A stretch of 2,799 nucleotides of DNA from a virus (Duplodnaviria > Heunggongvirae > Uroviricota > Caudoviricetes). The stretch lies in IMG/VR virus record IMGVR_UViG_2778261536_000004; one strand, given 5' to 3'. A program made the position numbers and the translations under genes. Below, one piece after another: positions 216 through 2,799 of the stretch. Every line of letters begins with the position of its first letter. Within the stretch, counting starts at the first letter, position 1. The notes beneath the pieces are model-generated. The model was not told where the DNA came from, searched no databases, and worked only from the letters and a program-made list of their open reading frames with translations.

Positions 216-497
216 TTACTTCTTGGCGTTCTGTTCATCCATATCGATATACCATGGGTTGCTTCCCTTGGGCATGTTTAACGACTGCTCGCGATAGTAT
301 CTGATGCGCTCCATGAAATACTCGCGTGAGTGCTCAGGTTGCTCTCATGATACCTGCTCAGTGATAACAGGTATGTTAAGGCGCTCTCTGTACTCCATGC
401 CTGATGCTGCAAGGTCAACGTTTACCTTGTTCTGTTTTTCTTTCGATTTCTCGGCGATGTTATGCCTGACATTGTCAACCCGCCTCCTTCTGAACAT
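216..497 (-). pseudogene. Reading frame of 93 codons interrupted by a single in-frame TGA (plus 345-347); possible nonsense-disrupted gene, or alternatively just a 32-aa ORF at 216..314
   Basis: Seen in sequence by hand translation of the minus strand: ATG at 495-497, 50 codons (MFRRRRVDNVRHNIAEKSKEKQNKVNVDLAASGMEYRERLNIPVITEQVS), TGA, then 42 codons in the same frame (EQPEHSREYFMERIRYYREQSLNMPKGSNPWYIDMDEQNAKK) to TAA at 216-218, followed by the terminator. There is no convincing Shine-Dalgarno at the 497 ATG, and the first codons (AGA AGG AGG CGG) are really the 3' end of the overlapping 475..717 gene in another frame. Inference only. Confidence 0.25.
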
Positions 498-717
498 AAC
501 GGTTATAAATCAGTCCCTGAGGGCCATAAGGAAGCGGGATGTGCAACTCCTCTGGTTCAGAAACTATCCATTCCCCGGCCATCTCCGCTGGAGAGGTAAT
601 GATAAGTTGTTTGCTAATAAAAGGACCACTCCTCTCAACAACAAGCTTACCATCTTCATTAATAAAAGCTTGGATGTCAGGTGTGCTTCCACACTTGGTG
701 ATGCAGCGTTTGAACAT
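475..717 (-). CDS. Hypothetical small phage protein, 80 aa (MFKRCITKCGSTPDIQAF...NRYVQKEAG)
   Basis: Seen in sequence: the ORF track gives 475..759, but the ATG at 757-759 and the one at 730-732 lack a ribosome-binding site. The ATG at 715-717 is preceded by a purine-rich G tract (GGGGGGA, 6 nt spacer), so I prefer that start. TGA stop at 475-477. The opposite-strand ORF 304..762 has junk-like, Cys/Ser/Leu/Phe-rich composition. No family recognised. Confidence 0.5.
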   Translation of the reverse strand: MFKRCITKCGSTPDIQAFINEDGKLVVERSGPFISKQLIITSPAEMAGEWIVSEPEELHIPLPYGPQGLIYNRYVQKEAG

Positions 718-747
718 TTTGTGTCCCCCCATTTTATGTACGGGGTA

Positions 748-777
748 ATTATAACACATTGAAATATAGTAATATTT
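748..777 (-). promoter_or_regulatory. Candidate extended -10 promoter (TGnTATAAT) with adjacent palindrome, directing leftward transcription of the 475..717 gene
   Basis: Seen in sequence: minus-strand TGTTATAAT (the TATAAT hexamer is plus 748-753 reverse-complemented), placing a transcription start near 741. The inverted repeat AAATAT-AGTA-ATATTT (plus 762-777) overlaps the expected -35 region. The intergenic region 760-843 is AT-rich, so chance matches are likely; there is no good -35 hexamer. Confidence 0.3.
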
Positions 778-843: not shown

Positions 844-1452
844 TCACCCATCTTGCTGCGGTGCTACTATTGAAAAGTACTCACACCCTTTAGCCCAAAT
901 AGTTTTGATAGTTGTCCAACTGACTGGAACCTTGATTTCGATTCTCCCGCTGCCGTCACAAGTTTCGCAATCATCATCACCAAAGCATTCCGGGCAGCTT
1001 ATAAACGTAGTTTCTGAAAATTCACCGGATAGCACACCCTTAGCGCCGTTCTCAGCGGTTAGTTTCTTCGGCACTATAACCCAACCATCCGGAGTTACCG
1101 GAGAGTTGCCCGATGGCTCGTTCAACTTGCAAGTTTGGCTTACAGGTTCGGCTTCCAGTTCTGCTATGCGCTTTTTTGCTGCTTCCAGCTCGCCAAGCAG
1201 CGCCAAGACGGTAGCCGGATTGGCTGCGGCGATGAATTCAGCATTGGCCTGCTGTTCCATTTGGAAATCTTCATCGAAACCGCTTTCAGGATGCGCTCCT
1301 TCAATTCTGCAAATGGGAAGATATCCAACAACTTCACGATGAATTAGCGCATCACCAGCATCAAATCTCTCCTCTCCATATTCGAGCGACCACACACCAC
1401 TCGTTGCTTTCTCTGCCTTTTCACGCAGCGCCTGATAGTTAATTTTGGTCAT
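844..1452 (-). CDS. Ead/Ea22-like prophage protein, 202 aa, with a C-terminal CxxC-x5-CxxCxGxG zinc-finger-like motif
   Basis: Seen in sequence: 202-aa ORF with ATG at 1450-1452, 1 nt after the upstream gene's stop (TGA-T-ATG). Established knowledge, from memory: the N-terminus (MTKINYQALREKAEKATSGVW) and the coiled-coil-like LLGELEAAKKRIAELEAE segment resemble Ead/Ea22-family proteins of lambdoid phages. Cys153/156/162/165 (CPECFGDDDCETCDGSGR) are encoded at 958-996. Family call not checked by search. Confidence 0.6.
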   Translation of the reverse strand: MTKINYQALREKAEKATSGVWSLEYGEERFDAGDALIHREVVGYLPICRIEGAHPESGFDEDFQMEQQANAEFIAAANPATVLALLGELEAAKKRIAELEAEPVSQTCKLNEPSGNSPVTPDGWVIVPKKLTAENGAKGVLSGEFSETTFISCPECFGDDDCETCDGSGRIEIKVPVSWTTIKTIWAKGCEYFSIVAPQQDG

Positions 1453-1453
1453 A

Positions 1454-1753
1454 TCACATCACCCTGAAGCCGTTGCATTTACGTAAGAAATCGCAGATAT
1501 AGCCCTTCATTTTTTCATGCCAATCTCGATCATTCCCATTGCACCAACCATCAGGTGGAGTCCAGTTTTCTATCAGAGCAGCCATTTTCTTTGCTTTCGC
1601 CGGAGTAGCTGTTGCGGTATCGCAGTAATGACGAGTGTCAACCAACGCATCCATACCATCGATATCAAGTACGCAAAACCATGTGTGATTCGGCATTCTA
1701 ACAGATGGTATTTGTTGCCCACGTCGACGTTTATCAATAAGACATACACTCAC
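1454..1753 (-). CDS. Hypothetical small phage protein, 99 aa, Cys/His/Trp-rich
   Basis: Seen in sequence: GTG start at 1751-1753 preceded by a strong Shine-Dalgarno AAGGAGG (plus 1759-1765 reverse-complemented, 6 nt spacer). The start overlaps the upstream gene's TGA stop (GTGA), indicating translational coupling. Stop TGA at 1454-1456. Protein-like composition; no family recognised. Confidence 0.6.
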
Positions 1754-1917
1754 TGCTTGCCTCCTTTACGCCACATCGCATTCAGATATTTGTTGTCATT
1801 AACAGAACCGAAACTCTTCCTTTTAAGCAATTCCTCTCTCGATGGCATTGGCTTTACGCGTTGGCGAATAATCATTTCTGCCGGAAGAATGCCGGGATTG
1901 TATGCAAGTCCTCTCAT
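1750..1917 (-). CDS. Hypothetical small basic protein, 55 aa ([55 protein letters not shown])
   Basis: Seen in sequence: the ORF track extends this frame to a TTG at 2067 with no ribosome-binding site, overlapping the 1928..2221 gene. The ATG at 1915-1917 is preceded by GAGG (8 nt spacer) just after the upstream gene's stop, so I prefer this start. Stop TGA at 1750-1752 overlaps the next gene's GTG start. Confidence 0.5.
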
Positions 1918-1927
1918 GGTAAATTCC

Positions 1928-2221
1928 TCAGTCATTACTGATAGCGCCATAGCGTGAGCGGTAATTACGCAGGCGCGGGTCAATTTCAGGGAAGTGGGTA
2001 TATGTGGCTTTGCGGAATGGTCGGATTGATGTCTGGTAAATTCGCTCTCGTTCTTCTTTCTCTGCAAGCCATATACAGTGGCGAAATTCCTTTTCCTCTT
2101 TCGTTTCCTGCGGTAGCGACATTATCCGATCGTAGTTTTTTCTGAATTTATCCAGCACCTCTGATACGGAATTGCCGGAACAGCGGCGCGCGTCGTCCGC
2201 ACCATACAGAGGCGCTGGCAT
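1928..2221 (-). CDS. Hypothetical phage protein, 97 aa, Glu/Lys/Arg-rich
   Basis: Seen in sequence: ATG at 2219-2221 preceded by AGGAG (minus CAGGAGAAAATC-ATG); TGA stop at 1928-1930. It starts 13 nt downstream of the ssb-remnant stop. No family recognised. Confidence 0.6.
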
Positions 2222-2234
2222 GATTTTCTCCTGA

Positions 2235-2453
2235 TTAAATTGCGTGAATAGCGTGACGAGGGAAGGGGAGAGTTACTGGTGCAAAGGGTATATCGTCGTC
2301 AAAATCCATAGGTGGTTCGCTGTGATTCCCCTGCTGCTGAGATTGCTGTCTTTGTTGCTGACCGTTATTTCGCTGAGGTGAAGACTGTTCATTGCCTCCT
2401 TGCTTGCCACCAAGCATTTGCATGGTTCCACCAACGCCCACGATGACTTCGGT
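2235..2453 (-). pseudogene. ssb: ssb (single-stranded DNA-binding protein) 3' remnant: OB-fold N-terminus missing, C-terminal linker and acidic tip retained, native stop lost
   Basis: Seen in sequence: the minus-strand frame encodes [20 protein letters not shown]...[12 protein letters not shown]. Established knowledge: E. coli SSB has [20 protein letters not shown] followed by a Gly/Gln/Pro-rich linker and ends ...[11 protein letters not shown]. Upstream of about 2453 the similarity stops (frame closes at TAA 2508-2510, no OB-fold sequence in any minus frame). After DIPF the frame continues 15 codons ([15 protein letters not shown]) to TAA at 2235-2237. Confidence 0.6.
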
Positions 2454-2799
2454 AAGTGATTTTGAAATTAACTTAAAAGTCGCGCATATCGTGCTAGGAA
2501 AAAACAATTACGACTGGGATCCAGAAAAGAAAGAAGTTTACTTGGCTGGAATTGATGGTGGTGAGTTTTTGCCTTGCGGATATTTCGACCCATGTAATAT
2601 GGCCGCTGACGCATATCCGATCATCACTGAAAACAAAATTAGCACCATGTGGATGACAGCGGAAAAAGAATGGTGCGCATGGTCAGGAGGTGATTTAGAG
2701 GAAGGTTGTTGGGTTCCTGACTACTGCTTCTGCGGTGAATCGCCTCTCCGCGCAGCCATGATTGTATTTCTCATGATTCAGGACGCCAATAATGCTTAG
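2443..2799 (+). CDS. Hypothetical Trp/Cys-rich protein on the plus strand; start uncertain, possibly 5'-truncated at the ssb junction
   Basis: Seen in sequence: plus-strand frame open from 2392 to TAG at 2797-2799. From about 2460 the translation is protein-like (…[35 protein letters not shown]…[46 protein letters not shown]), while all three minus-strand frames over 2508-2799 are broken by stops or lack an ATG. Codons before about 2455 are antisense to the ssb linker. The ATGs at 2422 and 2443 have no Shine-Dalgarno. No family recognised. Confidence 0.35.

Follow-up and report, generated by a model that had tools for sequence, protein, structure and literature searches.

The three small open reading frames (ORFs) at positions 1454-2221 on the minus strand of the analysed DNA (a 2,799-nt stretch of the IMG/VR virus record IMGVR_UViG_2778261536_000004, referred to below as the window) probably form the part of the early-left (PL) operon in which the recombination module reaches its promoter-distal end and the first accessory gene follows; the operon is that of a lambdoid prophage of the P22/Sf6/HK620 type. 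They are read here as three separate genes for proteins of 97, 55 and 99 aa, namely Abc2 (ORF1), a DUF2737 protein (ORF2) and a DUF7739 protein (ORF3). The initial annotation treated all three as unknown and considered that nothing in the sequence assigns a function to any of them. That description fails for ORF1, which is recognizable as Abc2; ORF2 and ORF3 are catalogued, and so named in RefSeq, under DUF2737 and DUF7739, although both families are without known function. The accompanying guess of host-takeover or anti-defence factors is borne out for ORF1. The region as such is already annotated: each of the three genes has a family name, and together they belong to the routine annotation of a defective P22/Sf6-type prophage.

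Gene identities, translation signals and coding constraint

ORF1 extends from an ATG start at 2221 to a TGA stop at 1930-1928 and is preceded by the Shine-Dalgarno sequence AGGAG (2232-2228), located 6 nt 5' of the ATG in a junction that is the same in 41 related loci. Its product matches the Pfam family PF11043 (Bacteriophage P22 anti-RecBCD protein 2) at 209.6 bits (threshold 25) over positions 1-97 of 97, as well as phrog_656 ("abc2 anti-RecBCD"), and is identical at 88 of 97 positions to chain A (Abc2) of the PDB entries 8B1T and 8B1U, with P68 kept. By these sequence matches, ORF1 is a full-length orthologue of the anti-RecBCD protein Abc2 of P22.

ORF2 (1917-1750, ATG start) follows after a spacer of 10 nt, and its Shine-Dalgarno sequence GAGG (1929-1926) overlaps the ORF1 TGA by 2 nt and lies 8 nt 5' of the ATG; this abc2/DUF2737 junction is identical in 142 loci. 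The protein is a full-length member of DUF2737 (PF10930, 101.9 bits, threshold 25; phrog_1117), a family that includes P22 Orf56, to which it is 73% identical, HK620 HkaI, HK97 gp38 and Sf6 gp23. It is very basic (pI 10.7), and its AlphaFold2 (AF2) model comprises three short helices at low confidence (pLDDT 66). ORF3 (1753-1454, GTG start, TGA stop at 1456-1454) begins within the end of ORF2, so that its start and the ORF2 TGA overlap as GTGA, and it has the Shine-Dalgarno sequence AAGGAGG (1766-1760) 6 nt 5' of the GTG. Its product matches DUF7739 (PF24881) at 74.5 bits (threshold 27) and contains the invariant residues W25, F89, C93, G95 and F96. No NCBIfam model matched ORF1, ORF2 or ORF3, and a PDB sequence search with ORF2 and ORF3 gave nothing meaningful.

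After the ORF3 TGA, one T precedes the ATG, at 1452, of the Ead/Ea22-like gene (TGA-T-ATG). The geometry of stops and starts and the separate ribosome-binding sites described in the initial annotation can be read directly in the sequence, and the RefSeq starts agree: in E. coli CUVET20-1667 the same three genes are called with identical starts and boundaries. At the junctions among the three ORFs, stop and start overlap or are separated by a spacer of at most 10 nt, and the Shine-Dalgarno sequence lies inside the end of the upstream gene, as in coupled operons. This geometry, and nothing besides it, suggests translational coupling of the ORFs. RNA folding at the junctions predicted no significant structure, including none that sequesters a Shine-Dalgarno sequence, and coupling is therefore not demanded by the sequence. 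Between 2460 and 844, the minus strand showed no promoter-like or terminator-like sites, and no Rfam RNA families were found in the window.

The coding status of the ORFs was assessed with homologues taken from 240 IMG/VR loci. In the related loci, variable sites are distributed over codon positions 1/2/3 as 19/20/54 in ORF1, 9/14/28 in ORF2 and 12/11/28 in ORF3, and the pN/pS ratios (Nei-Gojobori) are 0.13, 0.33 and 0.31, respectively. All three ORFs are under purifying selection and are conserved coding sequences, beyond chance; the initial annotation had raised conservation as coding sequence in related prophages as a point on which its reading could fall, and what is found is third-position bias with pN/pS between 0.13 and 0.33. 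The notion that chance or pseudogene decay accounts for ORF2, ORF3 or both draws on the defective state of the prophage and on the loss of the operon's promoter (see below). Against it stand, besides these values, the intact reading frames of both ORFs, their membership in curated Pfam families above threshold, and the well-folded DUF7739 model (pLDDT 94.5). Its probability is practically negligible, and for coding status in the family the chance-ORF view is already refuted.

Genomic context and state of this copy

At the DNA level, the region is ~95% identical to Sf6 (genes 25, 23 and 22) and 96.7% identical to HK75 (genes 30, 29 and 27). Its description as packed early-left-operon genes of a lambdoid phage, with an ssb remnant on one side and an Ead/Ea22-like gene on the other, is upheld, and the type is that of P22/Sf6/HK620. 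Intact relatives carry the order Rad52/Erf - ssb - abc2 in their early-left recombination module, whereas the window retains only a 3' remnant of ssb (2235-2459, minus strand), comprising the acidic tail motif, a further 16 residues and a TAA stop at 2237-2235. The NCBIfam and PHROG SSB matches cover the C-terminal part only, and the homology shared with intact E. coli prophages extends only as far as 2459, inside ssb. The 3' part of ninX (2453-2799, plus strand) shows homology from 2453 onwards, so that the two remnants, which are divergent as ssb and ninX are on the lambdoid map, are joined at 2453-2459 through the 7 shared base pairs TAAGTGA.

The simplest reading of this junction is one deletion with 7-bp microhomology, extending from the 5' part of ssb through the 5' part of ninX. 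A deleted span comprising erf, N, PL, the repressor gene cI, cro, the replication genes O/P and the proximal nin genes would fit this reading. Among 5,426 complete E. coli genomes, none contains the ssb-ninX junction. The remaining operon is intact but detached from PL, and because the deletion would have removed this promoter, the genes are probably silent in this copy.

Several features of the neighbouring genes were observed. The Ead/Ea22-like gene (844-1452, minus strand; 202 aa; PF13935, 71.1 bits) is the usual downstream partner of DUF7739. Its protein is mosaic: the C-terminal half matches PHROGs other than those of the N-terminus, and the C-terminal ~100 residues (window 844-1150, minus strand), unrelated to the Ead_Ea22 domain, contain a CPEC...CETCDGSG motif that may form a zinc ribbon. 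Farther downstream, at 216-497 (minus strand), lies a phage-borne gene resembling that for DNA polymerase III theta (HolE), with an in-frame TGA (...PVITEQVS*EQPEH...). Since a RefSeq relative is also annotated with an "internal stop" (locus L001, 8577-8858), the stop predates this copy. A 94-aa ORF (475-759, minus strand), located after the Ead-like gene and before the theta pseudogene, matches phrog_9613 (unknown function) and has no Pfam family.

A near-constant abc2-DUF2737 pair and an independently shuffled DUF7739 gene

The initial annotation grouped the three ORFs as a cassette and proposed a check of their co-occurrence across prophages. Synteny was examined in 80 IMG/VR loci per anchor gene, a narrow and redundant sample in which every locus shares at least 93% identity with the queries. 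Among the abc2-anchored loci, DUF2737 lies downstream of abc2 in 80/80, with the 10-nt spacer in 63 and one inserted gene of ~290 bp (DUF5405 / Sf6 gp24 type) in the other 17. Agreement extends to a phage collection with 225 Abc2 records and 221 records with a full-length DUF2737 match, and to Stx2 phages, which keep the adjacency with an Abc2 that is only 61% identical. In Cronobacter, DUF2737 follows a 31%-identical Abc2 homologue whose stop overlaps the ribosome-binding site (TAAGGAGttaaccATG; TAAGGAG-N7-ATG), and in P22 the gene order is erf-abc1-abc2-orf56-eaE.

The Cronobacter homologue is a 101-aa prophage protein (locus L252, 3617-3922), whose gene is flanked by a 157-aa gene and DUF2737. 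Over the full length, it shares 31% identity with Abc2 (pairwise E 2e-7), yet it does not match the Pfam Abc2 family (PF11043) even at E <= 0.1; it is probably a divergent Abc2 missed by current models.

DUF7739, by comparison, is found within 3 kb in only 12/80 abc2 loci, and DUF2737 directly adjoins it in only 21/80 DUF7739-anchored loci. Of the 56 DUF7739 loci with an Ead/Ea22-like gene, 55 have it immediately 3' of DUF7739. Thus, abc2 and DUF2737 are a near-constant pair, while DUF7739 shuffles independently and mostly travels with the Ead/Ea22 gene. A single co-evolving functional cassette of all three genes, to which the tight packing and overlapping signals could point, as could the contiguous order that recurs in, for example, E. 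coli CUVET20-1667 and phage APC_JM3.2, is very unlikely in view of these counts; moreover, its members are split by inserted genes in Sf6, HK75 and Cronobacter, and the sequence shared at the ORF2-ORF3 boundary explains easy swapping. The trio is not a unit.

The boundary sequence in question, AAAGGAGGCAAsCAGTGA (window 1750-1767, minus strand), combines a ...KGG(N/K)Q protein tail, the ORF3 Shine-Dalgarno sequence and the GTG start. It recurs behind differing genes (DUF2737, EaE/Oad2-like and others) and before differing ones (DUF7739, Ead/Ea22), for example at about 3470-3490 of locus L003. It is typical of lambdoid boundaries, looks like a module-exchange joint and accounts for the mosaic gene arrangements.

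Proposed roles of the three proteins

P22 Abc2, for which cryo-EM structures have been solved, docks on RecC at the domains that recognize Chi (the "inactivated helicase" domains), close to the latch helix and to the alternative ssDNA exit channel (PMC9836394). RecBCD unwinding is largely unaffected and the Chi response is abolished; according to the proposed model, Abc2 diverts RecBCD from loading RecA to loading the phage annealing protein (PMC9836394; also PMC12315714). P22 Abc2 also co-purifies with the host protein PpiB via P68, which enters the PpiB active site (PMC9836394). Orthology predicts RecC binding and an altered RecBCD response to Chi for ORF1 as well: the helicase would be kept running with its Chi response blocked, the processed DNA end is thought to be handed to the phage annealing protein, and proline 68 would engage host PpiB.

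ORF2 would be translated directly behind abc2 from the ribosome-binding site that overlaps the abc2 stop. Such an arrangement invites the view that DUF2737 is a dedicated Abc2 partner, a third "abc" component co-translated to stabilise Abc2 or to act with it on RecBCD. The synteny in 80/80 abc2 loci with a conserved overlap of stop and Shine-Dalgarno sequence agrees with such a partnership, as do the retention of the arrangement in P22, in Stx phages and in Cronobacter despite the divergence of Abc2 (61% and 31% identity in the latter two) and the reported instability of Abc2 when expressed alone (PMC9836394). Conversely, RecBCD-Abc2 complexes were obtained and solved without Orf56, the DUF2737 protein of P22 (PMC9836394), and the family also occurs apart from Abc2. 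About 400 further phage records, mostly of virulent Guernseyvirinae such as SE2 and K1H, contain the DUF2737 core only (residues ~23-51) and no Abc2; in Salmonella phage SE2, gp24 (locus L246, 3941-4096) carries this core, in a stretch of tiny ORFs that separates the lysis genes from the terminase genes. In 6/80 DUF2737 loci, abc2 is replaced by RecT - Sipho_Gp157 - 104-aa gene, 3' of which DUF2737 is found. Because DUF2737 is present in Guernseyvirinae and RecT-Gp157 modules without Abc2, an Abc2-specific link is not required, and we regard the dedicated partnership as possible but doubtful.

The DUF2737 core is near-invariant (including ..N.NKYLN): between E. coli and Cronobacter this core is 88% identical, while Abc2 is only 31% identical. 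Our inference is that DUF2737 has a conserved host component as its binding partner and travels at the distal end of recombination modules; in lambdoid phages its action would fall within the recombination / RecBCD pathway or beside it. An exhaustive profile search retrieved 106 cluster representatives among 1.84 billion proteins, almost all of them small and stand-alone, and no informative domain fusions; apart from one repeat protein, the long matches are gene calls that deletions have turned into run-ons.

Three side observations concern the records of this family. The long "DUF2737" database proteins P0221, P0222 and P0223 are annotation artefacts and not true fusions, having arisen, after upstream deletions, by run-on through an out-of-frame stretch that overlaps the 3' end of abc2. 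The K1H ORF with the DUF2737 core (locus L247, about 4001-4081) is unannotated. The alternative recombination module before DUF2737, RecT - Sipho_Gp157 - 104-aa protein (- DUF5405), is seen at 1527-2984 of locus L108 and in five similar loci.

For DUF7739, the AF2 model (58-sequence alignment) has high confidence (pLDDT 94.5, pTM 0.86) and forms a beta-beta-alpha ... alpha-alpha-beta domain. Its fold matches are weak, namely Neisseria DMP12, a Burkholderia CdiI immunity protein and E. coli YfbM at 6-10% identity with Foldseek E values above 0.1, and a BFVD search with the model matched only unnamed proteins. A literature search on DMP12 and YfbM found no link between those folds. Since DUF7739 is basic (12 acidic and 15 basic residues; pI 8.59), DNA mimicry of the DMP12 kind is excluded. 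The predicted fold hints at a small protein-binding inhibitor, nothing more. The gene is an independently exchanged accessory gene for a protein modelled as compact alpha/beta, in a variable slot that is filled in related phages by other accessory genes, that for the anti-OLD inhibitor Oad2 among them. We infer that its product binds or inhibits a host or defence protein stoichiometrically. In prophages of Plesiomonas, Serratia and Cronobacter, distant members are invariably located in the interval from the recombination module to xis/int, next to genes that vary (RecT/RdgC; HNH-like/Ead-like; PAPS reductase), and weaker relatives (34-38% identity) occur in phage records of about 92-95 kb. The Sf6 annotation notes similarity of gene 22, its DUF7739 gene, to a gene of Salmonella plasmid pHCM2.

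The slot itself has drawn attention recently: HK446 gp27 (Oad2, EaE-related) inhibits the OLD defence nuclease, and the region beside the recombination genes has been termed an anti-defence hotspot (preprint 10.64898/2026.07.10.737580). By analogy, DUF7739 might be an anti-defence protein that binds and inhibits a host immune effector. The analogy gains from its position after DUF2737, where HK446 has Oad2, from HK75, in which an Oad2 homologue (gp28) and DUF7739 (gp27) stand in series, and from the occurrence of DUF7739 in phage records of about 92-100 kb. It loses from the weakness of the fold matches and the circumstantial nature of a hotspot position; no PADLOC or other functional match was obtained, the matches to PADLOC defence-system models being at chance level (E >= 0.014). 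ORF3 shows no similarity to EaE/Oad2 (E = 3.6; positive control HK75 gp28, 2e-17), so the anti-defence idea is founded on position and fold only, and we put it forward tentatively, as an option with less than an even chance. The Ead-like gene, including its C-terminal half, was likewise rejected as an EaE/Oad2 relative (E = 0.59).

The most far-reaching combination would make DUF2737 an overlooked partner of the recombination / anti-RecBCD module, one that binds a conserved host factor and might stabilise or aid Abc2 on RecBCD or hide what follows from RecBCD manipulation from the defence systems that sense it, and, separately, DUF7739 a new anti-defence inhibitor in the Oad2 hotspot; we judge this combination unlikely. 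In a literature search, DUF2737 had one incidental mention and DUF7739 none, and neither has been addressed by experiment or publication. Two leads follow from the three separate genes recognized here. One is a small protein that has stood behind abc2 since P22 and is absent from the published "recombination locus" constructs that were found (the HK620 module; the HK75/HK446 Rec locus). The other is a confidently modelled 99-aa DUF7739 protein in a recently identified hotspot of anti-defence genes. Both would be cheap to test in P22, HK620 or HK75.

Comparison with P22, lambda and related phages

The closest characterized counterpart of ORF1 is P22 Abc2, which has the same length of 97 aa, the same P68 and the same position, 3' of annealing-protein/ssb genes and 5' of an Orf56 homologue. 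ORF1 differs from it by nine substitutions: A11P, R32L and S65A lie within residues 3-66, the modelled RecC-binding region, and the remaining six affect the disordered C-terminus. A further difference concerns the upstream module, which is of the Rad52/Erf+SSB type in the intact relatives and erf-abc1 in P22. No Abc1 homologue was found in the window; neither ORF2 nor ORF3 is similar to P22 Abc1, and ORF3 gave no alignment with it at E <= 100. Lambda Gam is a functional analogue of ORF1, as a small protein of the early-left operon that neutralises RecBCD (PMC9836394; PMC12315714). However, Gam acts by blocking the site where DNA enters, with inhibition of every RecBCD activity, whereas Abc2 binds RecC and modulates rather than blocks the enzyme (PMC9836394).

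P22 orf56 joins abc2 through the same TGAGGAgTTTACgATG junction (overlap of stop and Shine-Dalgarno sequence) as ORF2, and no substantive difference separates ORF2 from P22 Orf56, HK620 HkaI, HK97 gp38 or Sf6 gp23. The products of Sf6 gene 22 and HK75 gp27 are 94-95% identical to ORF3, and their genes have the same GTG start and the same Ead/Ea22 gene behind them; in Sf6 and HK75, however, other genes part DUF7739 from abc2 or DUF2737, which it abuts in the window. HK446 has the order abc2 - DUF5405 - DUF2737 - Oad2, in which Oad2 overlaps DUF2737 by 4 nt and occupies the slot directly 3' of DUF2737 that DUF7739 takes in the window, but Oad2, at 175 aa, is unrelated in sequence to both ORF3 and the Ead-like gene.
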